A stretch of DNA of 64,000 nucleotides, taken from NCBI GenBank assembly GCA_964441405.1, contig CAYTYP010000022.1, positions 3,569 through 67,568 on the forward strand, in the 5' to 3' direction. Source of the DNA: an uncultured Acidobacteriota bacterium. GTDB lineage: Bacteria; Acidobacteriota; UBA6911. The position numbers and the translations under genes were made by a program. This document shows positions 762-50,713 of this stretch, piece after piece (the stretch's first letter is position 1; every line of letters starts with the position of its first letter). The notes beneath the pieces are model-generated. The model saw only the letters and a program-made list of their open reading frames with translations, had not been told where the DNA came from and did not search any database.

Positions 762-1432
762 TTATTTAGTTTGTTGCGCCTCTTTGGGCCTTACCGCTAT
801 GACCGGGACGGTAATGCCGTCAGGCGTAACAATGGTGAATCTTATTACAGATCCGGTGACTTCTCCCTTCCATACTGTTCTGTTGTTATTGCCGCGATCC
901 ACCAGGAAGTAAACATTGGTTCCATCGACCTTTCCTTCTATGATTTTCGCTGCTCCATGGGTTGGATTATTGGCCGTTCCTGTCAGCTTTGTTCCGTCAA
1001 CGTTAAGGTCCAGTTCAATGTCAACACTTGTGGTGCCCGCAATCCATTTTCCGGATATATCACGGATAGCTTCTTTCTGCCGCACCGCAATGATCTGTTT
1101 GGAGCCTCCCCCTCCAAAAATGGAGCGGGTGAACCGGATCACATCCCCTTCAACCTTCCCTTTCCACAATATTTTCGTTTCATTGTAGTTGTTCAGGCGC
1201 AACACAAAAAAGAGATGGTATCTCCATCGATTTTCCCGTCCTTGATTTTCGTATTTCCCAGCAAAGGATTTTCAATACTGCCCTTCAACTTATCTCCTTT
1301 TGCTTTGAAAACCATCACGAGGTCGTTGTCTTCAACAGCCGCAGTCCATTTTCCAGTAACATCAGCGGCAATAGCTGTCCCTGCCAGTGACAAAAAAGCT
1401 AAAAATCCAATGAAAGCAATTCGTTTATTCAT
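762..1432 (-). pseudogene. secreted protein with two tandem small beta-rich domains, split by a frameshift in a T6 run near 1206-1211
   Basis: Signal peptide MNKRIAFIGFLAFLSLAGTAIAA, then ADVTGKW...KIKDGKIDGDTISF. The protein continues in another frame as VLRLNN...WKGKVEGDVIRFT, and a second repeat DISGKW...KIIEGKVDGTNVYF...WKGEVTGSVIRFT follows. One extra T restores the frame. Confidence 0.75.
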
Positions 1433-1542
1433 AGAAGTCCATGATCTCCGTTGCGGATGTTTGTTCACTGCATTCTGTTCGTTGGCGTAGCATAAAAATA
1501 GCAAATTAGATTAAATCAACGCAAGCCCAATTTATTGCAAAT

Positions 1543-4212: not shown

Positions 4213-5268
4213 ATGAATATTATCGGGTGGGATATCGGGGCGGTAAATGTGAAGGCGGCATGGTTAGGTGAACAGGTTCGGATAGTTACACAGCCGCTGG
4301 AAATCTGGCAGGAAAAAAACCGATTGCCGGAAATATTGCGAACGGTCTACGAAGCCCTGTCTAAGGGCGCGCTTCCTCAGGCAATGGCTGTAACCATGAC
4401 CGCCGAATTATCCGATGCGTTTGACACAAAACGCGAGGGGGTGCTGTTTGTATTGGGATGTCTCGCAACCTGCTTCCCAAAACCGGCTAACTATTGTTTG
4501 AGCCTTTCGGGCGCCTTCATCCCTCTGAAGGAAGCGCAGGGACGGCCTCTTGAATTCGCCGCCGCAAACTGGCTTGCCTCCGCGCTCTGGATAGCGAAGC
4601 AATTTCCGAATTGCCTCCTTTTGGATGTTGGCAGCACCACAACCGACATCATCCCTATCCTGTATGGACAGGTTTGCGTCAGCAGGCGGACAGATCTGGA
4701 TCGCCTCTCTTCAGGCGAGTTGGTTTATACTGGCGCCCTGCGCACCAATCTGGCGGCTATGGTTCATTCTGCGCCCATCGCCGGGAAATCTTGCAGGGTC
4801 GCTTCCGAATACTTTGCCATCAGCGGCGACGTTCATCTGATACTTGGAAACTTGCCACCACAGGATTATACGTGTCCCACTCCCGATGGCCGGCCGCCTT
4901 CCGTCGCCTCCGCCCGCAAACGGCTTGCCCGACTGGTATGCGCCGATGATGAAATGCTTTCCACGGCTGAAATAGACGAACTGGCCCGATACATCTATGC
5001 GCAGCAACTCCTTCAAATTCAAAAAGGCATCGATCAGGTAATTTCCAGGTTTCCGGAATTGCAGACTCAGCCGGTTGTTATTTTAGGCGCCGGAGCTTTC
5101 CTGGGGAAAGCGGCGGCGGCAGGAATGGGATTGAAAATCCACGATCTGACAAAGAACTGGGGAGATGAGAAAGTGGCTGTGGCATCATGTCTGTCCGCAG
5201 CTCATCTGCTCTCCGAACATTTGCGATCCCCACAATCGTCATTCGTCAATCGTCAATCGCCACTATGA
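4213..5268 (+). CDS. mfnF: hydantoinase/oxoprolinase-like H4MPT-linked C1-transfer protein, methanofuran biosynthesis MfnF (orf9) homologue
   Basis: GWDIGAVNVKAA, AVTMTAELSDAF, AAANWLASA, LLDVGSTTTDIIP, TDLDRL..GELVYTGALRT and CTPDGRP motifs; adjacent to an MfnE-like kinase. Confidence 0.85.
   Translation: MNIIGWDIGAVNVKAAWLGEQVRIVTQPLEIWQEKNRLPEILRTVYEALSKGALPQAMAVTMTAELSDAFDTKREGVLFVLGCLATCFPKPANYCLSLSGAFIPLKEAQGRPLEFAAANWLASALWIAKQFPNCLLLDVGSTTTDIIPILYGQVCVSRRTDLDRLSSGELVYTGALRTNLAAMVHSAPIAGKSCRVASEYFAISGDVHLILGNLPPQDYTCPTPDGRPPSVASARKRLARLVCADDEMLSTAEIDELARYIYAQQLLQIQKGIDQVISRFPELQTQPVVILGAGAFLGKAAAAGMGLKIHDLTKNWGDEKVAVASCLSAAHLLSEHLRSPQSSFVNRQSPL
5233..5260 (+). repeat. heptamer CAATCGT x4 inside the mfnF 3' end
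   Basis: Reads caatcgt cattcgt caatcgt caatcgc. Confidence 0.85.
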
Positions 5269-5909
5269 ACCTGGATGCCGTAATAAAAATAGGAGGCAGC
5301 ATCAGCCGGGGTCCGGAGCTTCCGACTCTATGCCGGGAAATCGGTCGCCTGTCCAAGATCCATTCGCTGCTGATTGTACCGGGAGGAGGCAAGTTCGCCG
5401 ACCAGGTTCGAGAAGCTTATCGGCGCTATCGACTCAACGAAACCGCAGCGCATCACATGGCGTTGCTGGCCATGGATCAATACGGTTGCCTCCTGAATCA
5501 TCTGATCGAAGACAGCTATTTGATTTCCGATCCGTTTGTGGCCTCCCATATAGCTAAATCAGGCCGAACTGCAATATTGCTCCCTTCCAAAATTGTTTTT
5601 CGATTGGATCCTTTGCCTCATTCCTGGGAAGTTACTTCGGATGCCATCGCCGCCTGGATAGCGCAGTTGATCAATTGTTCTCGCCTGGTTTTGGCTAAAG
5701 ACGTTGATGGCTTGATGACCCCCGGGAATGAAATGATTGAGATACTATCGGTGGAATTATTGGCCAAACACTCCGGAGGAGTGGATGAGTATTTATCCCG
5801 GTTCCTGCCATCGACCCGGCTGGAGACCTGGATTATCAACGGCGCAAAGCCCGAGCGTTTATCGGAGCTATTGAAAATCGGCCGTACTAAAGGCACAAGA
5901 ATAGTGTAA
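5265..5909 (+). CDS. mfnE: amino-acid-kinase-family protein, methanofuran biosynthesis MfnE (orf21) homologue
   Basis: VIKIGGS, IVPGGGKFADQVR, AHHMALLAMDQYG, LPHSWEVTSDAIAAWIA and KDVDG motifs; ATGA overlap with the mfnF stop. Confidence 0.85.
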   Translation: MNLDAVIKIGGSISRGPELPTLCREIGRLSKIHSLLIVPGGGKFADQVREAYRRYRLNETAAHHMALLAMDQYGCLLNHLIEDSYLISDPFVASHIAKSGRTAILLPSKIVFRLDPLPHSWEVTSDAIAAWIAQLINCSRLVLAKDVDGLMTPGNEMIEILSVELLAKHSGGVDEYLSRFLPSTRLETWIINGAKPERLSELLKIGRTKGTRIV

Positions 5910-5940
5910 AGGATCAGCCTGGGAAAGCGGGCATATTATT

Positions 5941-5970
5941 GCAATATATACATCATGATGTATATATTGC
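5941..5970. repeat. perfect 30-bp AT-rich palindrome
   Basis: GCAATATATACATCATGATGTATATATTGC equals its own reverse complement. Confidence 0.95.
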
Positions 5971-6030
5971 TCCAGTAGGTCTGATTGCACGGCCCTCCGC
6001 TGAGCTCGTGCGTTATGTGTTTTTAAACCT

Positions 6031-6378
6031 ATGGCATTTTCGGAAATTGAAACGAAAATAATTGAGAAGGCAATGGCTGCATTCATGGAAAAGCGCAGAC
6101 CGCCGGCGCCTATCCGCTCAAAACTTGATCTTGGGTATCGCATTACTGGTCACAGCGTGGAGCTGTTTGAAATCCGTCCGAGATATGATAAGCCGGAAAT
6201 AATTTTAGAGCATGATTTTGCAAAGACAACCTATGTGCGTACGCAAAGGGTTTGGAAAGTTTTCTGGATGCGCGCAGATTTGAAATGGCACAGCTATGAG
6301 CCAGTTCCTGAAGTCGACAGCATCGAAAAGTTTTTGGAAATTGTAGGCCAAGACAAATATTCTTGTTTCTTTGGATAA
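6031..6378 (+). CDS. DUF3024 domain-containing protein
   Basis: RRPPAPIRSKLDLGYRI, ELFEIRP, WKVFWMRADLKWHSYEP and terminal CFFG are typical of the family. Confidence 0.85.
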   Translation: MAFSEIETKIIEKAMAAFMEKRRPPAPIRSKLDLGYRITGHSVELFEIRPRYDKPEIILEHDFAKTTYVRTQRVWKVFWMRADLKWHSYEPVPEVDSIEKFLEIVGQDKYSCFFG

Positions 6379-6397
6379 AATGCAATATGTCTACTGA
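6379..6397 (+). repeat. 19-bp direct repeat, left copy (right copy 11264-11282)
   Basis: AATGCAATATGTCTACTGA versus AATGCAATATGTCTGCTGA, 18/19 identical. Confidence 0.7.
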
Positions 6398-6419
6398 CCA
6401 CGCAACTCTGACGCGATTG

Positions 6420-6677
6420 TCAGGCGATTTTACTACAGTAGAAAGCAAGCAATGAAGAAATGTCCAACCGGTCGGGATTGTATTTGCATTCGATGGCATC
6501 GACCTTGTTTTCGCTGCGCCGGATCACAGACGGAAAGTCGCAGTTCAGATATACCGCTCCGGCGAACATACGGGCGAGCGTAGTTTTTCCGGCCCGCCGT
6601 TCTCCGGAAAGCCACTCAATCGGGCGCCGTTCCCATCCCTGCTCGATGCGCTGGATCCCAAAAGGCCGTGAAATCAT
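6420..6677 (-). pseudogene. AAA_14/DUF4143 ATPase remnant with a large internal deletion
   Basis: The N-terminal Walker A region (WLSGERRAGKTTLARM...YLNCD) is fused in frame directly to the C-terminal VDAIECK motif, only 85 codons in total. Confidence 0.75.
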
Positions 6678-6782
6678 AAAAAGCATATTTTACTAATGGC
6701 CGACCAAATGCATAATATGTTTCCATATAGAAATTGGACTTATCGTATCTAAATCAAACAGGCGTTGACAGCAGAGAACATC

Positions 6783-6817
6783 TGTGCAAATCCCATCTTT
6801 AACTTGCAATTTGCACA
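6783..6817. promoter_or_regulatory. 9-bp inverted repeat (TGTGCAAAT-N17-ATTTGCACA) upstream of the ATPase
   Basis: Read directly; ends 21 bp before ATG 6839. Confidence 0.5.
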
Positions 6818-6838
6818 AAACTGCGGCATCGTTTCAAA

Positions 6839-8014
6839 ATGATCACTCGAGACATTTCAGAAGAATTGGCTCGATGCGCCTCCGAATATCCCGTGGTGAC
6901 TATCCTGGGACCGCGCCAGTCGGGCAAGACCACGCTGGCACGAATGACGTTTCCGGACAAGCCGTACTATACTCTGGAGGACCCGGATATCCGCATGGCT
7001 GCGGAAGCTGATCCGCGCGGATTCCTGGATCAGCTGGGGGACGGCGGCATCCTGGACGAGGTGCAGCGGCTGCCGGCGTTGCTCTCCTACATTCAAGGCA
7101 TGGTCGACAGGTCAAGAAAGCGCGGACGATTTATTCTGACCGGAAGCCATCAGCCGCAGCTGCACGAGGCAATCAGCCAGTCTCTGGCGGGCCGGACCGC
7201 TATCCTGACTCTTTGGCCTTTCTCTCTTCATGAGCTTCGTCGCTATGAGCCGGTGAGGGATCCATACCACTTGATCTGCCGGGGATGTTTTCCCCGAATA
7301 CACGAAGAGGGGCTTGAGTCGCGCAGGTTTTTCAATTCCTACCTGCAAACCTATGTCGAGCGCGATGTGAGGGCATTGATCCAGTTGCGGGATTTGTCTC
7401 TGTTCCAGAAGTTTCTCACCTTGCTCGCCGGCAGAGTGGGACAGATCGTCAACCTGGCTTCGCTCGGCAACGATGTGGGTGCTTCAGGAACAACGATTGG
7501 AAACTGGCTTTCCGTACTGAAGGCCTCGTATATTGTGTTCGAGCTGCCGCCGTTTTTCGAGAATGTCCAAAAGCGCGTGATCAAATCCCCCAAGATATAT
7601 TTTACGGATATCGGTCTCGCGACTTTTCTACTGGGTATCCACACGGAGGAACAAGCGTCCCGCGATCCTTTGCGCGGCAATCTCTATGAAAACTTCATCA
7701 TAGCGGAAATCGTCAAATGCGCTCTCAACAAGGGGATCAGGCCGGAGATCTATTTTTTCCGCGACTCCCACGGCAACGAGGCCGATCTGCTCATCAGGGA
7801 AAAGGGAATGCTTACACCGATCGAGATCAAATCCGCCGGCACGTTTTCCCCTGATTTCACCAGGGGGCTTGAGTATTTTCAGCGGCTTAAAATCAAGAAA
7901 GTGGCCGCCAGCGCGGTCCTGTATAACGGCCGACGGCAATTTACTGTACGCAATATCCGCATTTTCGATCCGCTTTATGTTGATGATATCTGGGAGACTC
8001 TGACTGCCCCTTAA
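6839..8014 (+). CDS. AAA_14 ATPase with DUF4143 (PD-(D/E)xK-like) C-terminal domain
   Basis: Walker A GPRQSGKT, Walker B ILDEVQ, FILTGS, SLAGR, KSPKIYFTDIGL and EADL...PIEIK motifs. Confidence 0.92.
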   Translation: MITRDISEELARCASEYPVVTILGPRQSGKTTLARMTFPDKPYYTLEDPDIRMAAEADPRGFLDQLGDGGILDEVQRLPALLSYIQGMVDRSRKRGRFILTGSHQPQLHEAISQSLAGRTAILTLWPFSLHELRRYEPVRDPYHLICRGCFPRIHEEGLESRRFFNSYLQTYVERDVRALIQLRDLSLFQKFLTLLAGRVGQIVNLASLGNDVGASGTTIGNWLSVLKASYIVFELPPFFENVQKRVIKSPKIYFTDIGLATFLLGIHTEEQASRDPLRGNLYENFIIAEIVKCALNKGIRPEIYFFRDSHGNEADLLIREKGMLTPIEIKSAGTFSPDFTRGLEYFQRLKIKKVAASAVLYNGRRQFTVRNIRIFDPLYVDDIWETLTAP

Positions 8015-8287
8015 GAAAAGGGTAAGCCCTAACCAGCATTTCTACTAGGCTTTCTACTGCTGCGGCGGATTCGGGCATGTCTGCTGCGAAAGATTTGGCG
8101 CAAACGGCGAGCCCGATTGCATTCGGAAGTTTATGAGGCAGCTGCTTGGGAGAATTCATAGCCGCTAGGCAGATTGTGCTACCTATCCTTCACTAAATCA
8201 TCTCCGTCCGCCACAAATTATGGAAATGGATGACGCCTGTAGCGATCATCTGCACATCGACCACAACCAAGCTCGTGATCTTCAGTC

Positions 8288-8312
8288 TATAGGAAGGATA
8301 AGCCGCGTCTTT
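8288..8312 (+). repeat. 25-bp perfect direct repeat, copy 1 (copy 2 at 11200-11224)
   Basis: TATAGGAAGGATAAGCCGCGTCTTT occurs at both positions. Confidence 0.9.
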
Positions 8313-8389
8313 GAGCTTAATCGTGGACACCCACTGTTATTCCAAAATTATCAATCAATGGGTGCCCAAGATTAACCTTATGACATATC

Positions 8390-8431
8390 CATGAAATATC
8401 GGAGTGCGACTCCGAGATTTCATGGTAAAAT
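8390..8431 (+). promoter_or_regulatory. 16-bp-arm palindrome overlapping an extended -10 element (TGGTAAAAT)
   Basis: CATGAAATATCGGAGT-gcg-ACTCCGAGATTTCATG (15/16 paired). TGnTAAAAT at 8423-8431 lies 6 nt before ATG 8438, and there is no RBS. Confidence 0.6.
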
Positions 8432-8437
8432 CAGCCT

Positions 8438-9583
8438 ATGATCCCAAGAACAAAATATTTCAATAGAATTGCCGATGCTGTTGATCGAACCCCTGTTACT
8501 GCCCTGCTGGGTCCCAGGCAATGCGGTAAAACAACGCTTGCCCGTCAATTCTCAGAAAATAAGAAATCTTTCTTTTTCGATCTGGAATCCACGCCTGACC
8601 AGCAGCGACTGCAAAACGCGGAGCTTGTACTCGGGAATTTAGAGGGACTGGTTGTCCTGGATGAAATTCAAACCATGCCTGAGCTATTTCGGGTGTTGAG
8701 AGTGCTGGTGGATCGTCCTGAAAACAAAGCCCGCTTCTTGATCTTGGGAAGCGCCTCTCCCGGTATTATAAAGAAAACTTCAGAAACACTGGCAGGGCGT
8801 ATTGAGTTTGTCGAATTGCACGGATTTGATTTACCGGAAATCGGGCCGGATCAATGGAAGAGCTTATGGCTGCGCGGCGGTTTTCCTCGATCTTTTCTTT
8901 CCCAATCGGAGGAGGACAGCCTAGCCTGGCGCGAAGGATTTATGCGCACTTTTCTTGAACGGGACATCCCTCAGTTGGGAATCAATATTCCAGCGCCGGC
9001 TATGCGCCGTTTCTGGACGATGTTAGCCCATTATCATGGCCAAACATGGAACGCCTCCGAAATCGGACGTTCGATGGGGTTATCAGACAAGACCATCCGC
9101 TCCTATCTGGATCTCTTAACCGGCACCTTCATGGTTCGGCAGCTTCAACCTTGGTACGAAAATATCGGCAAACGACAACTGAAAAAACCCAAGGTCTATC
9201 TTCGTGATACGGGCCTGCTACACAGCCTTTTGGATATTAGGGACTACCACGCCTTACTGGGAAACCCTAAAGCGGGAGCATCATGGGAAGGATTTGCATT
9301 GGAACAGGTTTTGCAAATACTTCATCCATCTCAAGCGTATTTTTGGGGAACGCATAATCTGGCCGAACTGGATTTGCTGCTTTTTCATAATGGACGTCGC
9401 TTTGGCATTGAGGTGAAATTTTCCGAATCTCCCAGGATTACGCCCTCCATGAAGATCGCGGTGAAAGATTTGGAGCTTTCCCATTTGTGGATCATCTATC
9501 CCGGACAGCATGATTATCCTGTGGAGACAAATATATCTGTCCATTCACTTCAAAACATCGCCCGATTACTTATTTTAAAATAA
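8438..9583 (+). CDS. AAA_14 ATPase with DUF4143 C-terminal domain (second paralogue)
   Basis: Walker A GPRQCGKT, Walker B VVLDEIQ, FLILGSAS, ETLAGR, KKPKVYLRDTGL and ELDL...GIEVK motifs. Confidence 0.92.
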   Translation: MIPRTKYFNRIADAVDRTPVTALLGPRQCGKTTLARQFSENKKSFFFDLESTPDQQRLQNAELVLGNLEGLVVLDEIQTMPELFRVLRVLVDRPENKARFLILGSASPGIIKKTSETLAGRIEFVELHGFDLPEIGPDQWKSLWLRGGFPRSFLSQSEEDSLAWREGFMRTFLERDIPQLGINIPAPAMRRFWTMLAHYHGQTWNASEIGRSMGLSDKTIRSYLDLLTGTFMVRQLQPWYENIGKRQLKKPKVYLRDTGLLHSLLDIRDYHALLGNPKAGASWEGFALEQVLQILHPSQAYFWGTHNLAELDLLLFHNGRRFGIEVKFSESPRITPSMKIAVKDLELSHLWIIYPGQHDYPVETNISVHSLQNIARLLILK

Positions 9584-9606
9584 TTGGTGACAGGCACGAA
9601 TTCCAT

Positions 9607-9951
9607 TTACATCATATATTCGCCGAGGCCTTCAAGATTGACGCCATCCTCAAAGAAAAAGATCACATGCTCAAAGCCCATGACATACGCGATCACCAGT
9701 TCTTGATGCGAGAAAAGCGAACCACGAGATTGCGTACCAGAGTCCATTCGCTCGCGCTTGAAATCGATGAAGAGGTAGTAGTCAGACCTTCAAAGCTCGC
9801 CGATGGTCCCAGAGTTGACGTCCTGAATGCTTTGAGCCTGGAGAGCGACATAGGGTCGGAATCCCTGAGAGGAGAACCACTCGGCTATGGCGTGGGCAAT
9901 GTCACGTTCGCCTTCACGATGTCCGCAGCTGATAAAGACCCGCGCTCGCAT
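9607..9951 (-). pseudogene. TIR-like / nucleoside-2-deoxyribosyltransferase-like domain gene with an in-frame TGA (not in the ORF track)
   Basis: Manual translation: RBS GGGAGG, then MRARVFISCGHREGERDIAHAIAEWFSSQGFRPYVALQAQSIQDVNSGTIGEL*RSDYYLFIDFKRERMDSGTQSRGSLFSHQELVIAYVMGFEHVIFFFEDGVNLEGLGEYMM*. The internal stop is at 9790-9792. Confidence 0.65.
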
Positions 9952-9982
9952 CTCTCGTCCTCCCTTGCAGCTTAACTAAAAT

Positions 9983-10414
9983 TTACGGATCGACTTTGCG
10001 CTTTAGCATGCCTCGCTCGCTTTTTGTAATAGGCACTCCGGAGCCATATCGAGTCAGTTCGCCCTCTAATCCATTTTTTCCATGCATAATTATGAACCGG
10101 CCCATTGGCAGGTCAAATACATACATCAGCGCATCTGCCTGCTTTGATATGCCCTTGAAAGGCGGATCGTTGAAATCTGCCTGGAATCGTCCATCAGCCA
10201 TTCGGGATATAACGATTTTATAAACATGCTTCTCAGATGCCGGAACATAAGAGCTTTCCGCAAGAAGCATTGATGGGAAAGGTGGAGTCGATGAGTGAGA
10301 CCAGACACGATCCACTTGGAAATACCATACACCGTCTATTTCATCGGATGTGGTTGCGTTTGGCGACCAAAGGGCCATTATCAGCAACACGCCAATTGGT
10401 ATTCTGGCAGTCAT
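9983..10414 (-). CDS. secreted hypothetical protein
   Basis: GGAG RBS 10 nt upstream of MTARIPIGVLLIMALWSPNA (signal-like), followed by a beta-rich mature part. Confidence 0.6.
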   Translation of the reverse strand: MTARIPIGVLLIMALWSPNATTSDEIDGVWYFQVDRVWSHSSTPPFPSMLLAESSYVPASEKHVYKIVISRMADGRFQADFNDPPFKGISKQADALMYVFDLPMGRFIIMHGKNGLEGELTRYGSGVPITKSERGMLKRKVDP

Positions 10415-10484
10415 TTTACTCATCTCCATTGAATGAAGGGCATGGCTTTTGCGGGCGTTGCGGGTATCTGTGTACATTTTCCAT

Positions 10485-11059
10485 TTATGGCATTTGGCAG
10501 AGATGACGGAAGGTGTCAATCCCCGGTGACTTTGATAAATAGGCATTCAAATCCGCGTCGTCCCAGCGAAAGAATGGATTGGTTTCACATTCCTCTTCGA
10601 GCAGAAGTGGAACAGTTGGCTTTCGCAAAACCGCGGAAGCTTCGAGTCTTTTGAGCCGCGCTGCAAGCCGGACATTATCCGGGTCGATGCCGGAGGATTC
10701 ACGCACATACTGCAGCGTGTATGTCCGGGCACATCTAGTATGGCTGCGTTTCGTCCGCATACTGTGATGGAATCGCCCTCTTTCAAAAATCCAGTCTGAT
10801 CTGGAATTCTGCCCCGATCTCCGAGACCGCCATAGACCGGAATTCTCGGAAAATGACTCAATAAAGCTTTATTGCCGCCTGTGTGATCCTGATGATGATG
10901 GGTATTGAGAATTGCGGTTAATCGCCGGCCTGTCTTGGCCAAATATTGGAGAACAGGCGCGGCATCGCCCGGATCAACGGCAGCGGCGTCCTCCGTCGAA
11001 TCACTGAGGAGCATGAAAATGTAATTATCCGCCAGGGCAGGCACAATCTGTATTTGCAT
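10485..11059 (-). pseudogene. gloB: hydroxyacylglutathione hydrolase (glyoxalase II) with internal deletion and frameshift
   Basis: PALADNYI, VDPGDAAPV, THHHQDHTGGN and VPGHT, then a jump in another frame to DPDN...PTVP..LEEECETNPFFRW. The central GDTLF/GCGRLFEG/CAHEYT block is missing. Confidence 0.85.
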
Positions 11060-11061
11060 AA

Positions 11062-11199
11062 TTAGGATCCCAACGCTTTTTTCGAGGCAAATACGTACGC
11101 TCTTCGGTTTTGGTATTCAACATCAGGGTATGGATCTCTTTCGACTGCTTCGACCGCTTCAAATCCAATCTCTTTCAAATAACGAATAATAGAATCTGT
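11062..11199 (-). pseudogene. C-terminal remnant of a class I SAM methyltransferase
   Basis: IIRYLKEIGFEAVEAVERDPYPDVEYQNRRAYVFASK resembles a methyltransferase C-terminus. It starts exactly at the 25-bp repeat and ends 2 nt before the gloB start. Confidence 0.55.
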
Positions 11200-11224
11200 T
11201 ATAGGAAGGATAAGCCGCGTCTTT
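11200..11224 (+). repeat. 25-bp perfect direct repeat, copy 2
   Basis: Identical to 8288-8312. Confidence 0.9.
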
Positions 11225-11263
11225 TCAGATTCTCTTCTTATCAAGTCGGCTCCAGCTGCTGAT

Positions 11264-11282
11264 AATGCAATATGTCTGCTGA
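11264..11282 (+). repeat. 19-bp direct repeat, right copy
   Basis: 18/19 identical to 6379-6397. Confidence 0.7.
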
Positions 11283-11320
11283 ATTTCTAATTGCATGACT
11301 GCCTAAATCGCCAAATATAT

Positions 11321-12016
11321 TTAGCTCTTTCTTGTCAACCGGCGCACAAGGGCTGCATCAAGAGGACCATTGCGTTGATTATTCCGGCAAACCAATGTGC
11401 GCAACCCTACTACGTCGGCGCCCAAATCACGAACCACCGGCAAGTCCTGTTCGCGCAGGGCGCCCGCCAAACCGAACATCAGACCTCCGGCGTGAGCTTC
11501 CTCGATAAGTCGCCCGATCTCCTGCAAATCGATAAAATCAAACAAGTTATGTCCATCTTTGATTGCAGTGTCCAGCAAACAGCCTTGAACGCCGGCTGCC
11601 AGAGCCACTCGCGGCAAAAATTCCGGTCGCAATGAGCCGGTTCGATTGGAATCGGCGTAGCCTGCGGCAATAATGGAACATTCATACTGGTGGAGGGCGC
11701 TTTTCACTGCGCCGAGCAGCGCAATGGCATCAGCCTCGTTGCGAGGGCCATATAAACCTGCTTTCACATAATCCGCTCCGCATACAGCAGCTCCGAGAGC
11801 GGCCAAAGCAGCTGTTCCGGGCAGGTTAGGCAAATCCCCTATCGCAACACTGATCTTTACCTTGCCCGTTGCCAGTTTTTTTATTTCTTTGATAGTTTGA
11901 GGAGATTGGGCGCCCAGAGAACCTTCCGCCGGATTCTTGATATCAAGAATTTCCGCGCCGCCTTGTAAGGCTTCGCGCGCTTCATCCGCAGACACAACGC
12001 TGATCATTAAAAGCAT
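11321..12016 (-). CDS. mfnB: (5-formylfuran-3-yl)methyl phosphate synthase (4-HFC-P synthase, DUF556/UPF0264, orf22)
   Basis: LLMISV...EAREAL.GGAEILDIKNPAEGSLGA, SVAIGD, GADYVKAGL, AAGYAD, LLDTAIKDG and GLAGAL motifs. Confidence 0.9.
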   Translation of the reverse strand: MLLMISVVSADEAREALQGGAEILDIKNPAEGSLGAQSPQTIKEIKKLATGKVKISVAIGDLPNLPGTAALAALGAAVCGADYVKAGLYGPRNEADAIALLGAVKSALHQYECSIIAAGYADSNRTGSLRPEFLPRVALAAGVQGCLLDTAIKDGHNLFDFIDLQEIGRLIEEAHAGGLMFGLAGALREQDLPVVRDLGADVVGLRTLVCRNNQRNGPLDAALVRRLTRKS

Positions 12017-12027
12017 AAGCTTATTTA

Positions 12028-12101
12028 CGATTGATAATTGACGATTTGAACCATACATAATTATCAAAAAACGCCATGGATTACACCGATTTCACCGATT
12101 T
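12028..12101. repeat. heptamer (ACGATTG-type) and nonamer (ATTTCACCG-type) repeats upstream of mfnB
   Basis: acgattg ataattg acgattt at 12028-12048; attacaccg atttcaccg attt at 12080-12101. Confidence 0.55.
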
Positions 12102-12202
12102 AAAAAATTCTGATGGAGAATTTATTGAATTAATAGTGAAATGCGTGGAATTCGTGACGTTTTTTCGTTTTTGAAAATTCATGGCCAAAATACGGAGATA
12201 AA

Positions 12203-12211
12203 TGCTATAAT
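12203..12211 (+). promoter_or_regulatory. extended -10 promoter (TGCTATAAT) for the rpmE cluster
   Basis: Perfect TGn-TATAAT ending 54 nt before the rpmE ATG. Confidence 0.6.
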
Positions 12212-12265
12212 AAGCGTTTATCTTCGGGCGATAAAGTAAGAGTGAGCCCGCAAAACGAGGTTGAA

Positions 12266-12487
12266 ATGAAAGAAGGAATTCATCCCAAGTACCCTAAGAT
12301 TCTAGTAACATGCGCTTGCGGAAATAAATTCGAGACGCATTCCACTAAATCAGAGATTCGGTTGGAGTTATGCTCCGCATGCCATCCGTTCTTCACCGGA
12401 AAGCAGAAGTTGGTCGACACCGCAGGCCGAATCGAGCGATTCAATAAACGATACGGCAAGGGCAAAGAAACTCCACCCACATCCTGA
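12266..12487 (+). CDS. rpmE: 50S ribosomal protein L31 (zinc-binding, C+ type)
   Basis: [27 protein letters not shown] and [11 protein letters not shown] motifs. Confidence 0.97.
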
Positions 12488-12497
12488 GAATTTTTTG

Positions 12498-13460
12498 ATG
12501 TCGAGTACAAAGTCCAAAGCGTCGCCCGAGGACATTCTGGTAGGCGGTCAGGCCGTCATTGAAGGTGTCATGATGCGCACGCCTCATGCCTATGCAGTAG
12601 CGGTGCGGCGAGCGGACGGATCCATCGAGGTAAAAAAAGAGTCGGTAAAGCGCTTATCCGAATATTGGAAGCCTCTATCCTGGCTTGTAATCCGCGGTTT
12701 TGCCGTCCTGGTCCAATCGATGGCATTAGGGTTGGGCACATTGAATTATTCCATCAATGTGGCTATGAAGGATTTAGAGCCGGAGTCGCCTGAAAAACCG
12801 AAAAAAAAGAAAGAAAGCACGGCGTTGCCGATTGCGCTTTCCATGATCCTCGGCGTAGCGGCGGCCGTTCTCCTTTTTATTCTTTTCCCCCTCTGGATCA
12901 CCACATGGATGAAAGGATACATTGCGGCTGTCCATAACTGGGTGGTCTTCAACCTGGTGGATGGGCTTATCCGCGTAATCATTTTTCTGGCCTACCTTTT
13001 ATTGGTAAGCATGATGAAAGATATCCGCCGGGTGTTTCAGTACCATGGCGCGGAACACAAGGTTGTTCATACGTGGGAAGCGAAAGAAGAACTCACGGTG
13101 GAAAACGCAAGCAGGAAATCAACATTGCATCCTCGTTGCGGCACCAGTTTTCTGATGTTTGTTATGGTCGTCAGCATCATTGTATTTTCCATCTTCAAGT
13201 TCAATGCTTTCTGGGCAATTTTCCTTTCAAGGATTGTGTTGATCCCTATCGTCTCCGGGTTGTCTTATGAGTTGATCCGTCTTTCAGCTCCTCGCTGCCA
13301 AAAAGGCTTTTTCCGTTTGATCGTGCTCCCCGGGCTGGCTCTGCAGCACATCACTACCAAGCCGCCTACGGACGATCAGCTGGAAGTCGCTATCCGCGCG
13401 CTGAAGGAATCCCTCGAGCTCGAAAGCATCAAGGCGCGTGAAGCGCAGACGGCCGCCTAG
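12498..13460 (+). CDS. DUF1385 (YqhQ-like) membrane protein
   Basis: VGGQAVIEGVMMR, FQYHGAEHK, HPRCGTSF and GLALQHITTKPP motifs; typical position between rpmE and prfA/prmC. Confidence 0.92.
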   Translation: MSSTKSKASPEDILVGGQAVIEGVMMRTPHAYAVAVRRADGSIEVKKESVKRLSEYWKPLSWLVIRGFAVLVQSMALGLGTLNYSINVAMKDLEPESPEKPKKKKESTALPIALSMILGVAAAVLLFILFPLWITTWMKGYIAAVHNWVVFNLVDGLIRVIIFLAYLLLVSMMKDIRRVFQYHGAEHKVVHTWEAKEELTVENASRKSTLHPRCGTSFLMFVMVVSIIVFSIFKFNAFWAIFLSRIVLIPIVSGLSYELIRLSAPRCQKGFFRLIVLPGLALQHITTKPPTDDQLEVAIRALKESLELESIKAREAQTAA

Positions 13461-13529
13461 CGGTTCCGCCCGCGTCCTCTCTCCTGTTTTCTTTTCATCT
13501 CTGCTAAATTTTAATTAACTGGATGTCCT

Positions 13530-14597
13530 ATGATCGACAAGCTTAACGCTTTAGAAAAAAAATTCGAAGATCTAAACACCCTTCTCGCAGACCCGGCCGT
13601 ACTTGCAGATCATTCAACATACAAGAAACATGCAAAGGCCTACAGCGAACTGCGCGAGATTGTGGAGAAATTCCGCGAATTCAAGGACATTTTGCGCGAG
13701 ATCGAGGAAGCCAGGGCGCTGGTCTCATCCGAATCCGACCAGGAAATGCGCAAGCTCGCGGATGAGGAATTAACAGCGCTCCAGGAGCGTGAAAAAGAAT
13801 GCTTCAAGGATCTTCAATTTCTATTAATGCCCAAAGATCCCCATGATGATAAAAACGTTCTTCTGGAAATACGGGCCGGCACGGGAGGCAACGAGTCGAC
13901 GCTTTTCGCAGCAGAGCTTTTTCGGATGTACTCCCGGTATGCAGAACGCAACGGATGGCGCGTGGAAATTATGGAAGAGCATTCATCCGAGGTAGGCGGT
14001 TATAAGGAAATCATTGCAATTATTGAAGGGGATCGCGTCTACAGCAAATTGAAATACGAAAGCGGCGTTCATCGCGTCCAGCGAGTGCCGGCCACGGAAG
14101 CCAACGGCCGCATCCATACGTCCGCAGTTACTGTAGCCGTTCTTCCGGAAGCGGATGAAGTGGAAGTGGCCGTCGATCAGAAGGATATCCGCATCGATAC
14201 TTTCTGCTCTTCCGGGCCTGGCGGCCAGTCTGTAAATACAACCTATTCCGCAGTCCGGATCACCCATATCCCAACAGGCCTGGTGGTGTCCTGCCAAGAT
14301 GAGAAATCACAGATCAAAAACCGCGCTAAGGCAATGCGCGTCCTACGGTCGAGACTCTACGATATTGCGCTCCAGGAACAACAAAAAACGATTGCAGAAG
14401 ACCGCAAAAGCCAGGTTGGCTCCGGAGATCGCAGTGAAAAAATCCGGACCTATAATTTCCCTCAAAACCGTGTCACCGATCATCGAATCGGCCTGACAGT
14501 CCACAATCTTCCGGAAATGCTGGATGGCAATATAAAATCGATGCTGGAAGCTCTCTTTACCTATTACCAGGCGGAACGGTTGAAAGAAGCCGTGTAA
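13530..14597 (+). CDS. prfA: peptide chain release factor 1
   Basis: PAT anticodon-mimic (RVPATE), GGQ motif, [21 protein letters not shown]. Confidence 0.98.
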
Positions 14598-14600
14598 CGG

Positions 14601-14697
14601 AATTACGAGTGACGAATAACGAATGACGAATTGAACCATACAGCCAAGTAGTTGGGAATATTTATTAGTTCGTCATTCGTCACTCGTAATTCGTAAT
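14601..14697. repeat. heptamer-repeat inverted-repeat element between prfA and prmC
   Basis: GAATGAC-type units. There is a 17-bp perfect IR, AATTACGAGTGACGAAT (14601-14617) / ATTCGTCACTCGTAATT (14675-14691). Confidence 0.85.
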
Positions 14698-14709
14698 AGT
14701 CCTGAAATT

Positions 14710-15576
14710 ATGATAATCCGGGATGCTCGAACAAGGGCTGTCGAGGAACTGCGAAGAGGGGATGTTAAATCTCCGGAGTTGGCGGCAGACCTATTGCTCG
14801 GTTTCACTCTTGGCTGGGACAGGGTTCGGATCATCAGCCACCCCGAAAAAGCCATAACTGAGGACCTCTGGATCCATTTCAAAAGCCTTGTCCAGCGGCA
14901 CGCTTCAGGCGAACCCCTTAATTATCTAACCGGTGAAAGGGAATTTTATGGCCTCTCTTTCCGGGTAACGCCCGCTGTTTTAATACCCCGCCCCGAGACT
15001 GAGCTTCTGGTTGAAAAGACAATTGAGCTTCTGAAAAGCTATCCGTCGCCGGCCCGGTTCCTGGATATCGGGGCAGGATCGGGCTGCATCTCGATAGCAA
15101 TCGCTCACGAAGTTCCCTCCGCAATAGGCTGGGCTGTGGATATTTCGGCGGCTGCGTTGGAGGTTGCAAAACAAAACGCCTGCCGGCACGGGGTCGCCGA
15201 TCGGATTCATTTTTTACAGGGAGATCTGCTGGAGAGCTTTCTCCCAAACTCAACCTTTGATTTTATTTTGAGCAATCCACCCTACGTGCCCCTGGAAGAA
15301 TGTGATACTCTCCCTTCCGACGTTATAAATTATGAGCCTCACCTGGCTTTATTTGGAGGCTTGACAGGATTGGAAATTTATTCCCGTTTAATTCCCCAAG
15401 TTCCAGGCCATCTTGTCCCGGAGGGATATCTATTGATTGAATCGGGGGCCGGTCAGACAGAACGGATTCAGGAACTAATAGAAAAAACAGGCCTGTCTTT
15501 ACAAATGATTTTAAATGATTTGCAGGAGATTCCCCGTTGCCTGATCGCACGGAAGATCTGGAGAAATAATGGATAA
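14710..15576 (+). CDS. prmC: release factor glutamine N5-methyltransferase
   Basis: GEPLNYLTG.REFYG, LIPRPETE, LDIGAGSGCI, SNPPY and YEPHLALFGG motifs. Confidence 0.96.
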   Translation: MIIRDARTRAVEELRRGDVKSPELAADLLLGFTLGWDRVRIISHPEKAITEDLWIHFKSLVQRHASGEPLNYLTGEREFYGLSFRVTPAVLIPRPETELLVEKTIELLKSYPSPARFLDIGAGSGCISIAIAHEVPSAIGWAVDISAAALEVAKQNACRHGVADRIHFLQGDLLESFLPNSTFDFILSNPPYVPLEECDTLPSDVINYEPHLALFGGLTGLEIYSRLIPQVPGHLVPEGYLLIESGAGQTERIQELIEKTGLSLQMILNDLQEIPRCLIARKIWRNNG

Positions 15577-16822
15577 AATTCGCGTGATCGGCGGCAATTG
15601 TCTGTCAGGGCGCATTGAAATCAGCGGCGCTAAAAACGCCGCATTGCCTGCAATGGCTGCGTCTCTTCTAACCGCAGACACTTTACATCTGGAAAACGTC
15701 CCCTATGTCCGGGACATTTTAACAACTCGTAATCTGCTGAGGGAAATGGGCGGCGAAGTGGAAGTTCAAGAGAACGGAACTGCCACGTTAAGAGCTTCCA
15801 ATATTAATGGTTTCGAAGCGCCCTACGAACTTGTCAAAACCATGCGAGCGTCCATTTTGGTCCTGGGACCGCTAGTCAGTAGATTCAAAAAAGCAAGGGT
15901 ATCCCTTCCTGGGGGCTGCGCGATCGGAGCGCGCCCAGTCAATCTCCATATCATGGGATTGGAAAAAATGGGCGCAGTCTGCGAAATCGTGCATGGATTC
16001 ATAGAAGCTTCCACCGAAGGACTGCACGGATCTTACATTCTGATGGATACGGTAACGGTCACCGGAACTGAAAACCTGATGATGGCTGCAACGCTGGCCG
16101 AGGGTGAAACCGTTTTAGATAATGCCGCATGCGAACCGGAAGTGAGCGATCTGGCCAACCTGCTGCGCGGCATGGGCGCTCAAATCGACGGGGACGGAAC
16201 CCGCTCCATTCGAATTCGCGGAGTCAAAAAACTTCACGGATGCCACCATAAGATCATGGCAGATCGCATCGAAGCCGGAACTTTTGCGATCGCCGGCGCA
16301 ATAACTCATGGCGATGTGGAGATTGCAAACTGCAATCCCAGACATTTGACCGCAGTCCTGACCCAATTGAGTCAAACAGGAGCCGAGGTAATGATGGGTC
16401 CCGATCACTTTCGCATCATAGGCAGGGACCCGATTATATCCAAGAACGTTGCTACCTACCCTTACCCGGCATTCCCAACCGACATGCAGGCTCAGTACAT
16501 GGCTTTAATGACCCAGGGCGACGCCAGCGCCGTTATTACTGAAACCATTTTCGAAAACCGGTTCATGCATGCTTTGGAAATGATCCGGATGGGCGCCGAC
16601 ATCACGATCGACGGACGGCAGGCGATAGTCAAGGGCAGACAACCCCTGACAGGCGCACACGTTTTGGCTTCGGATCTGAGGGCCAGCGCTTCGCTGATTT
16701 TAGCGGGACTCGTGGCTAAAGGGGAAACCATAATCGATAGGGTTTATCATTTGGACAGGGGTTACTATCGGATTGAAGAAAAGCTCGCTCAACTCGGAGC
16801 GAACATCGAGCGGATTAAGTAG
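15569..16822 (+). CDS. murA: UDP-N-acetylglucosamine 1-carboxyvinyltransferase
   Basis: SGAKNAALP, MRASILVLGPL, LPGGCAIGARP (active-site Cys present), FPTDMQAQ, IFENRF and SDLRA motifs. Confidence 0.98.
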   Translation: MDKIRVIGGNCLSGRIEISGAKNAALPAMAASLLTADTLHLENVPYVRDILTTRNLLREMGGEVEVQENGTATLRASNINGFEAPYELVKTMRASILVLGPLVSRFKKARVSLPGGCAIGARPVNLHIMGLEKMGAVCEIVHGFIEASTEGLHGSYILMDTVTVTGTENLMMAATLAEGETVLDNAACEPEVSDLANLLRGMGAQIDGDGTRSIRIRGVKKLHGCHHKIMADRIEAGTFAIAGAITHGDVEIANCNPRHLTAVLTQLSQTGAEVMMGPDHFRIIGRDPIISKNVATYPYPAFPTDMQAQYMALMTQGDASAVITETIFENRFMHALEMIRMGADITIDGRQAIVKGRQPLTGAHVLASDLRASASLILAGLVAKGETIIDRVYHLDRGYYRIEEKLAQLGANIERIK

Positions 16823-41723: not shown

Positions 41724-41934
41724 ATGCCCTGAAAGGGCATTATTACAAAGCCCAGGGTAGAGCGGCGTTTTTTGCCCCTCTACCCTGGGTATCGAATTGA
41801 TTCGTCTCTACCCTGAAAGGGTTGTTTACAGATGCAACCCTTTCAGGGTAGACCGTCACAACATCTTTTCCCAGGGTTGGGTTGCAAAAAGCGCAACCCA
41901 ACCCTGGGCTTTGTTATTCCTGCCCTTTCAGGGC
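41724..41934. mobile_element. about 211-bp composite REP/MITE-like palindromic element (CCCTGAAAGGG family)
   Basis: Terminal GCCCTGAAAGGGC / GCCCTTTCAGGGC; hairpins at 41751-41789, 41807-41852 and 41870-41908; overall symmetric; no ORF. Confidence 0.8.
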
Positions 41935-44303
41935 AGCCTTGGTTCCGGCGCTGCCGCTTCAATAACAATCGCTGCTTCCTTTAACCCGGCGGCCGAAGCG
42001 GACACCTTAATTTTCCCGCGGATCGCGCTCGCTTTAATCATTGCATAGCAGCGGCCCTGGTAGGCTCGACGCTCCGAAGCCTGAAAGGATTCGGAGCTGG
42101 AATTATCGCCGCTATCCACGGCTGCAATCACTCCGGGCCCGCTGACCTTAAAGGAAACCAGATCGGATGCGCCGGGAACCTGAATCCCACTTTGATCGGT
42201 TATGGTCGCAGACACAAAGGCGACATCATCCCAGTCCTTGAGGAGTTTAGGCCTGTCCACCGTCAACATAATCTTGGCCGGCTTGCCCGCAGTGCGCAAC
42301 TCGTGCTCGGCGACCACGGCTCCCCGGTTCTTTCCAATCGCTTTCAAGGCGCCCGGCTCCCACCCGATGATCCAAACCCGCGGCGAGTCATCGGCGTTCC
42401 TCGGCTTGCCGCCAATCGATTTGCCATTGAGCAACAACTCGACTTCTTCGCAATTGCTGTAGGCTTCGATGGTTTCTTCATGCGGGCCGGAATCGGTTGG
42501 CGTCCAATCCGCCAACTGCGTTGGCCGGCCGATAAGCGCGGCAAATCCGGGATCTGTAGGAAGAGCTTGCGCCGGTTTAACGCGGCGGACTATATGGACA
42601 ACCGGCTGGTCGCTCCACCAGCTCTGGCGTTCATAGGCCATAGGCTTGATTTCGCCGGTGCGGTCGAGCAATCCGGAACCTGCTGCAATCATGGGCCACC
42701 CGAACGCCTCGCCCAGGTAATCGATGCCGCTCCAGAGAAATTGCCCTGCGTGCTGCACATGATCGCGGCCCACCAGCCATGTGGCCAGTTCATGTCTTTG
42801 CTCCGTGCCAATGATTTTGCGGGTAGGCTTGGCTTTCTGAGCCTCCAGAAGTTCAAGGTCCCGGTAGTTGGTACCCACAACATCCAACAAATCCGCAAGA
42901 CCGTTGTCGTAATCATGGCTCACATTCGGACGGAAGAGCCCCTGAGTCACCGGTCGCGAAGGATCAAATTGATGAAAGACTTCTACCAACCCGGCGAGAA
43001 TTCGTTTGGCCAGGTCTGCTTTGGGCGTGTCATGGATTTCGTTCCCGGCGCTGTAAAGGATTATGCTGGGATGATTGCGATCACGAAGCACTGTGTCACG
43101 GAGGTCAACCTTCGACCATTCGTTGAAGTACAGGTGATAGTCATATTTGGTTTTCCCTACCGTCCAGCAATCGAACAGTTCATCCATCACCAGAAAGCCC
43201 ATACGATCGCATAAATCAAGGAATTCCGGCGCAACCGGATTGTGCGCGGTCCGGATGGCGTTTACGCCCAATGCGCGCAACTGTTCCAATCGCCGCTCCC
43301 ACACTCGCAGCGGCACAGCCGCGCCAAATGCACTTCCGTCATGGTGCAGGCATACTCCTTTGATTTTAATATTTTTGTCATTCAGCCAGAACCCTGTTTC
43401 CGGAACAAAACGAGCGTTCCGAATGCCGAAGACCTCTGTATCGATATCAACAAATTTTGAGCCCGATTTAATTTGGAGTTGTGCATGGTAAAGATTCGGG
43501 GCGTCCAGCTGCCAGAGTTTGGGATTCGCAACAATGAATTCTTCCTGAAAATCAATCGCGCCTCCCGAAGCAATCGATTGAGTCTTTTTCCTGACGGGGA
43601 CATTCTTTATGCCCAAGGGTGAAACGATGCCGATCTGCAGCTCAATTTCAGAAGATTTATCCGATTGATTCACAATCCGGCCTTGAACGCGAACAACAGC
43701 CTCCGTCGCAGCAACCCGCGGCGTTGTAATGTAAGTTCCCCATTTAGCGAAATGTACAGGATTCAAAGCCCTCAACCGGACATGCCGATAAATACCGGCC
43801 CCGGTGTACCAGCGCGAGGCGGGCTGGCCCGAGTTATCGGCCCGTACAGCTAAGACATTGGTCTTGCCCTTCCCGATAACAAGATGCTCCGTCAGTTCAT
43901 ATTCGAAACTGACATACCCGTAGGGTCGTTTCCCCAGATGAACGCCGTTGATCCACACGTCGCTGTTGGCCATGACGCCGTCAAACTCGATAAAGACCCG
44001 GCGCCCGCCATACTCTTGGGTCAGAGAAAAATGCTTGCGATACCAGCCGACGCCCGCAGGCAGATAACCTCCGGCGCCGCCGGTCGGATTCTTAGCGGCA
44101 AATGGCCCTTCGATGCTCCAGTCATGCGGAACATCAACCGTCCGCCATTCCGAATCATCAAAGACAGCTTTTTCAGCGCCCTGAACGTCGCCTTTGTAAA
44201 AGCGCCATCCGGGATCAAACGATGGAACAATACGTACATCCGCGAATGCTGAGGATGCGCCTGAAATTAGGACCAGAAGAAAGATGCATGATCGTAGTTT
44301 CAT
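41928..44303 (-). CDS. glycoside hydrolase family 2 (beta-galactosidase-like, with DUF4982 region), secreted
   Basis: VPHDWSIEG, FDGVMANSDVW.NG, SRWYTGAGIYRHV, GVCLHHD, NAIRTAHNP, RDRNHPSI..YSAGNE and GQFLWSGIDYLGE motifs. Confidence 0.95.
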   Translation of the reverse strand: MKLRSCIFLLVLISGASSAFADVRIVPSFDPGWRFYKGDVQGAEKAVFDDSEWRTVDVPHDWSIEGPFAAKNPTGGAGGYLPAGVGWYRKHFSLTQEYGGRRVFIEFDGVMANSDVWINGVHLGKRPYGYVSFEYELTEHLVIGKGKTNVLAVRADNSGQPASRWYTGAGIYRHVRLRALNPVHFAKWGTYITTPRVAATEAVVRVQGRIVNQSDKSSEIELQIGIVSPLGIKNVPVRKKTQSIASGGAIDFQEEFIVANPKLWQLDAPNLYHAQLQIKSGSKFVDIDTEVFGIRNARFVPETGFWLNDKNIKIKGVCLHHDGSAFGAAVPLRVWERRLEQLRALGVNAIRTAHNPVAPEFLDLCDRMGFLVMDELFDCWTVGKTKYDYHLYFNEWSKVDLRDTVLRDRNHPSIILYSAGNEIHDTPKADLAKRILAGLVEVFHQFDPSRPVTQGLFRPNVSHDYDNGLADLLDVVGTNYRDLELLEAQKAKPTRKIIGTEQRHELATWLVGRDHVQHAGQFLWSGIDYLGEAFGWPMIAAGSGLLDRTGEIKPMAYERQSWWSDQPVVHIVRRVKPAQALPTDPGFAALIGRPTQLADWTPTDSGPHEETIEAYSNCEEVELLLNGKSIGGKPRNADDSPRVWIIGWEPGALKAIGKNRGAVVAEHELRTAGKPAKIMLTVDRPKLLKDWDDVAFVSATITDQSGIQVPGASDLVSFKVSGPGVIAAVDSGDNSSSESFQASERRAYQGRCYAMIKASAIRGKIKVSASAAGLKEAAIVIEAAAPEPRLP

Positions 44304-44368
44304 AATGGAGTATTATGCAAAAAAATGTCCGCAAATCTCTACAGATTTAAACGGATAGGAGGAATTTG

Positions 44369-47119: not shown

Positions 47120-47125
47120 TAGGTT

Positions 47126-47176
47126 TTAACCGCGGATTTTCACGGATTCATCTGTGTGGATTCGTAAAAATCCGCG
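47126..47176. repeat. nonamer/IR element (TAACCGCGGATTTT...AAAATCCGCG) between convergent genes
   Basis: 10-bp IR at 47131-47140 / 47167-47176 with internal CGGATT units. Confidence 0.7.
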
Positions 47177-47178
47177 CT

Positions 47179-48555: not shown

Positions 48556-48637
48556 ATTGGGGTTTTCCTATTTGAACAGATTCAAGCAGTACTATAATTC
48601 AGGACGACGTCAGTTGAGCAAATTATTGGAGGAATAA

Positions 48638-50692: not shown

Positions 50693-50713
50693 ACGATCAT
50701 GCGATATCCATCA

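Follow-up and report, generated by a model that had tools for sequence, protein, structure and literature searches.

Intact furan-branch methanofuran genes in an acidobacterial genome, probably part of a dispersed tetrahydromethanopterin-linked pathway

The DNA analysed here, a 64 kb stretch of contig CAYTYP010000022.1 from an uncultured Acidobacteriota bacterium (hereafter the window, at its whole length), carries three genes for the furan branch of methanofuran/methylofuran biosynthesis. An earlier note on this DNA had read three of its open reading frames (ORFs) as mfnF, mfnE and mfnB, the first two coupled and converging on the third; family and structure matches bear out the three identities, and the described layout stands. 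The genes are as follows.

4213-5268, plus strand: mfnF-like gene (orthologue of Methylorubrum extorquens orf9), 351 aa; TIGR03123, NF040623, PF01968
5265-5909, plus strand: mfnE-like gene (orthologue of orf21), 214 aa (ORF listed as 5187-5909); PF00696, NF040622
5265-5268, plus strand: ATGA overlap of the mfnE start and the mfnF stop, read from the window letters
11321-12007, minus strand: mfnB (orthologue of orf22), 228 aa (ORF listed as 11321-12067); PF04476

We compared the window proteins with Pfam and NCBIfam profiles at their curated cut-offs. The mfnF-like protein scored 329 bits (cut-off 244) with TIGR03123, a "probable H4MPT-linked C1 transfer pathway protein" (H4MPT, tetrahydromethanopterin; C1, one-carbon), and matched Pfam Hydantoinase_A (PF01968) at E 7e-33; its best structural match was 3c0b, an archaeal structural-genomics protein, over residues 3-336 (E 3e-51). 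For the mfnE-like protein, a match to AA_kinase (PF00696, E 2e-17) confirmed the amino-acid-kinase fold, and the best structure was 7qrh (E 3e-31). MfnB matched the family of 4-(hydroxymethyl)-2-furancarboxaldehyde phosphate (4-HFC-P) synthase, PF04476, with 247 bits against a threshold of 22.4 (E 2e-73), spanning profile positions 1-227 of 228; close relatives are annotated by JGI as 4-HFC-P synthase, and the structure of MJ1099 (4rc1) was matched at E 3e-60. Residues D22, K24, K82 and D146 of MfnB align with the active-site residues D25, K27, K85 and D151 of MJ1099, and the four are invariant in all 85 aligned sequences. K27 of MJ1099 is the Schiff-base lysine, and two lysines and two aspartates are essential in its active site (PMC6604932).

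Positions 5260-5271 of the window read CCACTATGAACC, in which the ATG of mfnE overlaps the TGA of mfnF; judging from these letters the two genes are likely translationally coupled. A 4-nt overlap of mfnF and mfnE also appears in the gene coordinates of the closest relative (L001) and of a second acidobacterial locus (L004), and the two genes are adjacent in Acidobacteriota loci, Bathyarchaeia and Chloroflexota. The pair converges on mfnB, but the stop codons of mfnE and mfnB lie 5411 bp apart (5910-11320). All three ORFs are full length, and the matches are far beyond chance: the window holds three intact furan-branch methanofuran/methylofuran genes in an acidobacterial genome.

MfnB homologues are abundant in metagenomes (at least 120, all of those listed being at least 62% identical). 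The 12 best loci among GTDB species representatives, at 59-70% identity, comprise 11 Acidobacteriota metagenome-assembled genomes (MAGs), including UBA6911, and one record titled "beta proteobacterium"; next come Chloroflexota, archaea and Solirubrobacterales, with Streptomyces much further off. A neighbour-joining tree puts the window MfnB together with L001 and L009 in one clade of Acidobacteriota; among the loci of the adjacent clades (Chloroflexota, Solirubrobacterales, Longimicrobiales, Methylomirabilis) are some with clusters of Fhc (formyltransferase/hydrolase complex) and Mch. The acidobacterial origin suggested earlier is upheld by these nearly all-Acidobacteriota best genomes and by synteny with the Acidobacteriota MAG contig L009 across rpmE, DUF1385 and prmC (69-83% protein identity). 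Other window content also fits an acidobacterium, including CarboxypepD_reg and outer-membrane beta-barrel proteins, a pectin-type carbohydrate-active enzyme (CAZyme) locus and the rpmE-prfA-prmC-murA block. The record titled "uncultured beta proteobacterium" (L007, CAVSPM010000026.1) has an MfnB 63% identical to that of the window, together with the cluster layout and MfnB of the Acidobacteriota clade; the label of this record or the binning of its contig may be wrong. Archaeal MfnB (43-50% identity) resembles the acidobacterial protein more closely than does the single proteobacterial Orf22 compared (Azospirillum, 32-38%).

The same data bear on the idea that the furan made by MfnB goes into a natural product, as suspected for Streptomyces MfnB found without an H4MPT pathway. 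Streptomyces genomes and plasmids do contain MfnB homologues, and in the loci fetched there tblastn with pathway seeds gave MfnB as the only match within 10 kb. These proteins, however, are only 39-42% identical to their window counterpart and lie in a remote clade, no biosynthetic-cluster genes lie near the window trio, and the co-conservation of mfnE and mfnF and the linkage to Fae and Fhc in relatives point to a cofactor, making a secondary-metabolite role extremely unlikely. Membership of the window gene in a Streptomyces-type, non-cofactor MfnB subfamily was rejected on the tree and the identity values, and the best matches fall outside non-methanofuran subfamilies.

The trio is found in many Acidobacteriota MAG species, and in about a dozen of these MAGs (MfnB 59-79% identical) it is directly convergent. 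In the usual acidobacterial layout, mfnB converges on mfnE-mfnF, an MfnD-like ATP-grasp gene precedes mfnF in the same orientation, and a divergent HisA/HisF-like gene and Fae follow. In L010, L013 and L016 the run continues on the same strand as orf7 (CitG-like), an MptN/MyfB-like RimK-type ligase, Mch, FhcC, FhcD and FhcA; in L017 the trio is accompanied by the ATP-grasp gene, the HisA-like gene, the RimK-type ligase, FhcC, FhcD and FhcA. The assignments in L016 exceed their NCBIfam cut-offs.

L016 Fae: 259 bits (cut-off 118)
L016 Mch: 402 bits (cut-off 229)
L016 FhcC: 264 bits (cut-off 131)
L016 FhcD: 422 bits (cut-off 293)
L016 FhcA: 438 bits (cut-off 393)

In a further MAG, GCA_040961015.1, the trio cluster (L004) and a second block (L174) lie on one contig and abut at a common MCP gene, with fhcBADC, mch, mtd and H4MPT-synthesis genes about 20 kb from the trio; L174 holds DUF6513, DUF447, MptG-like, Mtd, OrfY-like ATP-grasp and FwdD-like genes, FhcB/A/D/C, Mch and a RimK-type ligase. 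FhcD matches were also found on contigs of the same size as the MfnB contigs of L015 (144451 bp, Acidobacteriota per NCBI) and P0085 (288151 bp). Because Fhc adjoins the trio or shares its contig, Acidobacteriota with the trio encode a cofactor-using enzyme, and the physical link of the trio to Fae, Mch and Fhc in other Acidobacteriota is directly observed.

Two features of these loci deserve mention in their own right. The FwdD-like gene of L174 (6684-7040) encodes a 118-aa Molydop_binding protein and precedes fhcB; fwdD is described as kept in Archaea, Synergistetes, Firmicutes and NC10 and absent from Proteobacteria and Planctomycetes (Chistoserdova 2016, PMC5020050). In L004, L011, L015 and L086, thiM (hydroxyethylthiazole kinase) lies between mfnF and the ATP-grasp gene. 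A PF02110 "HK" gene had been considered as an extra furan kinase, an idea we dropped because the gene is ThiM, above cut-off (343 bits on L086 against 180).

Related Acidobacteriota thus carry the trio beside the full pathway, and the window therefore probably contains a known system in ordinary but rearranged form: in this genome the trio would make up the furan branch of a dispersed H4MPT/methylofuran pathway of formaldehyde oxidation. The earlier note had offered such a dispersed pathway as one option, and it fits an MfnB that belongs to an Acidobacteriota clade whose members link the trio to Fae, Mch and FhcC/D/A. We infer that the genome still carries the partner genes outside the window and that the proteins have the corresponding enzymatic activities. 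In the proposed scheme, MfnB would convert two molecules of glyceraldehyde-3-phosphate to 4-HFC-P, and an aminotransferase (the MfnC step) would yield the aminomethylfuran phosphate F1-P; a bacterial MfnC is not known even in M. extorquens (PMC8141765). MfnE, a kinase of the amino-acid-kinase fold, is predicted to phosphorylate F1-P to F1-PP (furan diphosphate), which MfnF is predicted to couple with a gamma-glutamyl-tyramine or gamma-glutamyl-tyrosine unit from an MfnD-like ATP-grasp ligase. The finished cofactor would serve Fhc in a route that runs through Fae, Mtd, Mch and Fhc to formate. Orf22, Orf21 and Orf9 of the archaeal-like cluster of methylotrophs are assigned as MfnB, MfnE and MfnF (PMC8141765).

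This pathway is already known in the phylum, and only its degree of scattering here is a local peculiarity. Although Acidobacteria are not listed among the phyla with these genes in an earlier survey (Chistoserdova 2016, PMC5020050), H4MPT-linked formaldehyde oxidation is reported for the Acidobacteria genus UBA6911 in a later preprint (Yadav et al. 2021, bioRxiv 10.1101/2021.04.09.439258), and public MAG annotations already name these proteins. With the trio present in so many MAG species, the earlier suggestion that the trait is uncommon in this lineage does not hold.

The closest relative of the window is a 120 kb JGI contig, of which 31 kb was covered in two segments (L001 and L172). Identity to the window in L001 is 79% for MfnB, 76% for MfnF, 76% for MfnE, 86% for PrfA and 92% for MurA, and the order of the following block, a synteny anchor with the closest relatives, is kept there at 84-92% protein identity.

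12242-16822, plus strand: rpmE, DUF1385, prfA, prmC, murA block

Contigs in which the trio has rpmE, DUF1385, prfA, prmC and murA as neighbours are L001, L009 and those of P0012 and P0127. Window positions 10913-15266 recur at 100% identity in a 4.4 kb Logan contig (L090), and an identical contig of this length is present in SRR8925769; an exact search with the window's MfnF gave no match. Synteny with relatives stops directly upstream of mfnF, which lies 4.2 kb from the left edge of the window.

The sublineage of the window is represented by L001/L172 together with the P0121, P0012 and P0127 contigs. In these contigs the ATP-grasp/HisA-like/Fae block is shifted 3.5-7.5 kb upstream of mfnF, and the genes between include GH115, joined in some contigs by TPR, Nramp or toxin-antitoxin genes. 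The closest relative (L172) has this block, made up of Fae, the HisA-like gene and the MfnD-like ATP-grasp gene, at 7.5-10 kb upstream of mfnF. As synteny ends upstream of mfnF only 4.2 kb from the edge, the corresponding block of the window's genome may lie just outside the left edge, or elsewhere in the genome. When metagenomes were scanned with the ATP-grasp fragment of L001, the best match had 53% identity, and a Logan contig with a related ATP-grasp gene (L171) showed no similarity to the window.

Pfam or NCBIfam scans of the window itself covered about 55 of its 64 called ORFs, among them every one of at least 150 aa. No MptG, candidate tyrosine decarboxylase or aminotransferase was found by these scans. 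We also ran tblastn on the window with seeds from the whole pathway, as annotated in the archaeal-like cluster of Azospirillum brasilense plasmid p2 (L089), and with the genes of L013 from the ATP-grasp gene to FhcC; the trio was the only match. The statement of the earlier note that mfnD, fhc, ftr and mch are lacking in the 64 kb is thus confirmed by profiles and tblastn alike, and the module genes fae, mtd, mch and fhcABCD were not found beside the cofactor genes within the window, a result for the window and not for the genome.

Several observations weigh against a dispersed but complete pathway. None of Fae, Mtd, Mch, Ftr/Fhc/Fwd or an ATP-grasp protein was detected in the 64 kb by the scans and tblastn described above. 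Neither mch nor fhc was seen within the 10-20 kb viewed on the four sublineage contigs; the neighbours of Fae there are two family-less proteins and a formate dehydrogenase (Fdh)-like molybdoenzyme with NrfD; and no FhcD match fell on the sublineage contigs among the 120 matches listed, which is weak evidence because that listing was saturated at 120. At the level of family models, the mfnF-like protein scored 235 bits with the archaeal MfnF equivalog NF040623 (cut-off 520), the mfnE-like protein 140 bits with MfnE NF040622, its top NCBIfam family (cut-off 300; the runner-up, pyrH, scored 30 bits), and MfnB 239.5 against 341 with NF002573 and 236 against 304 with NF002575, two models that appear tuned to narrower groups. 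Finally, the locus bears signs of local decay, namely the insertion and the gloB pseudogene described below.

The sublineage data could instead mean that this group lost or replaced Fhc and Mch, so that the furan genes, Fae and the MfnD-like ligase serve another enzyme or furan product, for instance a stand-alone formyl-methanofuran-type dehydrogenase or the Fdh-like molybdoenzyme next to Fae. Such orphaned cofactor genes would explain why four sublineage contigs lack mch and fhc in the regions viewed and FhcD among the listed matches, and why in L172 and the P0121 contig Fae leads to two proteins of no known family and an Fdh-like molybdenum oxidoreductase with NrfD rather than to orf7, ligase, mch and fhc. 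Yet only 31 kb of the 120 kb contig was viewed, other Acidobacteriota without adjacent fhc have the genes on the same contig at a distance of some 20 kb or more, no users of the cofactor other than Fhc and Fwd are known (PMC6926001), and strong purifying selection on all three genes requires a functional user. We regard this alternative as unlikely; nothing positive speaks for a furan cofactor made for another use, which the earlier note had also raised.

The genes around Fae are themselves of note. In L172 (1755-8292), and likewise in the P0121 contig and in L173, Fae is followed by two conserved proteins without a family (265 and 466 aa), a tautomerase-like ORF, a molybdopterin oxidoreductase and NrfD; orf7, mch and fhc do not follow Fae in L172. 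The oxidoreductase of L172 has 719 aa and best matches formate dehydrogenase alpha, at 323 bits, below cut-off, and in the P0121 contig a 4Fe-4S subunit is called between the oxidoreductase and NrfD. It is very improbable that the methylofuran genes and Fae are uncoupled from Mch/Fhc and feed, for example, this Fdh-like molybdopterin oxidoreductase/NrfD and the two proteins flanking Fae; were it so, formaldehyde or formyl groups would be oxidised by a new, membrane-linked route. The apparent isolation of the trio comes mostly from rearrangement and insertions and from a window that starts 4.2 kb upstream of mfnF.

In the window the mfnE-mfnB interval is 5411 bp long, against 105 bp in L001 and a range of 7-370 bp in other relatives, owing to an insertion that contains the following features.

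5910-11320: window-specific 5.4 kb insertion, absent from all relatives
6031-6378: DUF3024 gene (Pfam/NCBIfam)
6420-6686: P-loop ATPase fragment (Pfam/NCBIfam)
6839-8014 and 8438-9583: two complete AAA_14/DUF4143 ATPases (Pfam/NCBIfam)
9983-10546: 187-aa ORF without a family match
10485-11059, minus strand: broken gloB (hydroxyacylglutathione hydrolase; TIGR03413)

In gloB, the N-terminal 120 residues correspond to positions 2-114 of the 248 in TIGR03413; its C-terminal part lies in another frame (ORF 10485-10760), and the central stretch appears to be missing. Two direct repeats, 8288-8312/11200-11224 (25 nt, 100%) and 6379-6397/11264-11282 (19 nt, one mismatch), may be the scars of two successive insertions; comparison of their flanks gave no extended similarity, and no clear junction emerged when the boundaries of the insertion were aligned with the intergenic region of L001.

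With the convergent pair parted by 5.4 kb, a gloB pseudogene and an ATPase fragment alongside, and synteny upstream of mfnF lost relative to all relatives, the trio might be a decaying remnant, its intact ORFs being recent survivors of a pathway on its way out. But the ORFs are full length, the ATGA coupling and the four catalytic residues of MfnB are kept, and the insertion sits between stop codons, disrupting neither transcription unit. We estimated the ratio of nonsynonymous to synonymous divergence (dN/dS) by the Nei-Gojobori method between window genes and L001 and obtained 0.127 for mfnF, 0.129 for mfnE and 0.115 for mfnB, compared with 0.055-0.096 for housekeeping neighbours (DUF1385, prfA, prmC, murA and a response regulator); the ratios are only approximate because dS, at about 1.2, is near saturation. 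A dN/dS of about 0.12 over so long a divergence means that the trio is under purifying selection, which clearly argues against neutral decay, and we consider the remnant explanation quite improbable. Of the earlier interpretation as a whole, then, the gene calls and the dispersed-pathway option stand, and the emphasis on isolation and rarity does not.

Elsewhere in the window, a gene for aldehyde:ferredoxin oxidoreductase (AFOR) with a 4Fe-4S protein lies at the right end (61290-63886, minus strand). A different AFOR-family gene (23-26% identical) occurs 0.1-5.5 kb upstream of mfnB in L006, L008, L011, L014, L015, L016 and L086, directly adjoining mfnB in L016; a tie of these genes to aldehyde or formaldehyde oxidation is possible. 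Positions 41928-52910 form a pectin/rhamnogalacturonan-type CAZyme locus with GH2, GH106 rhamnosidase, glucuronyl esterase, GDSL esterase, GH28, BD-FAE esterase and DUF4861. Pectin demethylation releases methanol, and we speculate that it could be a source of C1 units here. At 762-1504 (minus strand), the neighbouring ORFs 1193-1504 and 762-1205, which lie in different frames, have a "GKW...DGxKLxG...KIxxGKxDG" repeat pattern in common and start with a signal-peptide-like sequence, and ORF 762-1205 has no Pfam match; the two may be one gene split by a frameshift.

If the dispersed pathway is real, one more lineage of abundant environmental Acidobacteriota would be able to make a methanofuran-type cofactor and could oxidise or detoxify formaldehyde through H4MPT. 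This would bear on the handling of C1 units, such as methanol from pectin, in heterotrophs that are not methylotrophs, given the pectin-type CAZyme locus in the window. The finding opens no new question by itself. It is also a cautionary case for window-based scans, as the missing nearby partners reflected insertions and the edge of the window.

Among known systems, the proteobacterial archaeal-like cluster (Orf22/Orf21/Orf9 of Methylorubrum extorquens, compared through Azospirillum brasilense p2, L089) has the same three families, and its partner genes (fae, orf7, RimK-type ligase, mch, fhcCDAB) recur in the relatives of the window. Azospirillum, like Acidobacteriota, has a HisA-like gene divergent from the ATP-grasp gene and mfnF. 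Protein identity to the Azospirillum counterparts is nevertheless only 31-38%, and the arrangement differs: Proteobacteria keep mfnE and mfnB with H4MPT-synthesis genes, away from mfnF, whereas in Acidobacteriota coupled mfnF-mfnE converge on mfnB. Unlike the proteobacterial cluster, the window has no partner genes within 64 kb.

From the archaeal side, the window MfnB is 43-46% identical to the proteins of Methanocaldococcus genomes and contains the two active-site lysines and two aspartates of MJ1099 (4rc1/4u9p) from Methanocaldococcus jannaschii, and the mfnF-like protein aligns end to end with archaeal 3c0b. The system differs from the archaeal one in its bacterial host and in relatives that pair the trio with Fhc, for formaldehyde oxidation, and not with methanogenesis genes. 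Bathyarchaeia have yet another order, with HisA-like gene, mfnB, ATP-grasp gene, mfnF and mfnE on a single strand in one cluster.

A further described system is that of UBA6911 (Yadav et al. 2021), whose MAG contig L008 has the same arrangement of mfnB, mfnE and mfnF and an MfnB 60% identical to that of the window. The paper on this genus notes missing upstream C1-oxidising genes (bioRxiv 10.1101/2021.04.09.439258), and methanofuran did not turn up in term searches of its main text, the cofactor genes apparently not having been analysed there. The window differs from UBA6911 in representing another sublineage, with the trio set beside rpmE/prfA and apart from the remaining pathway.

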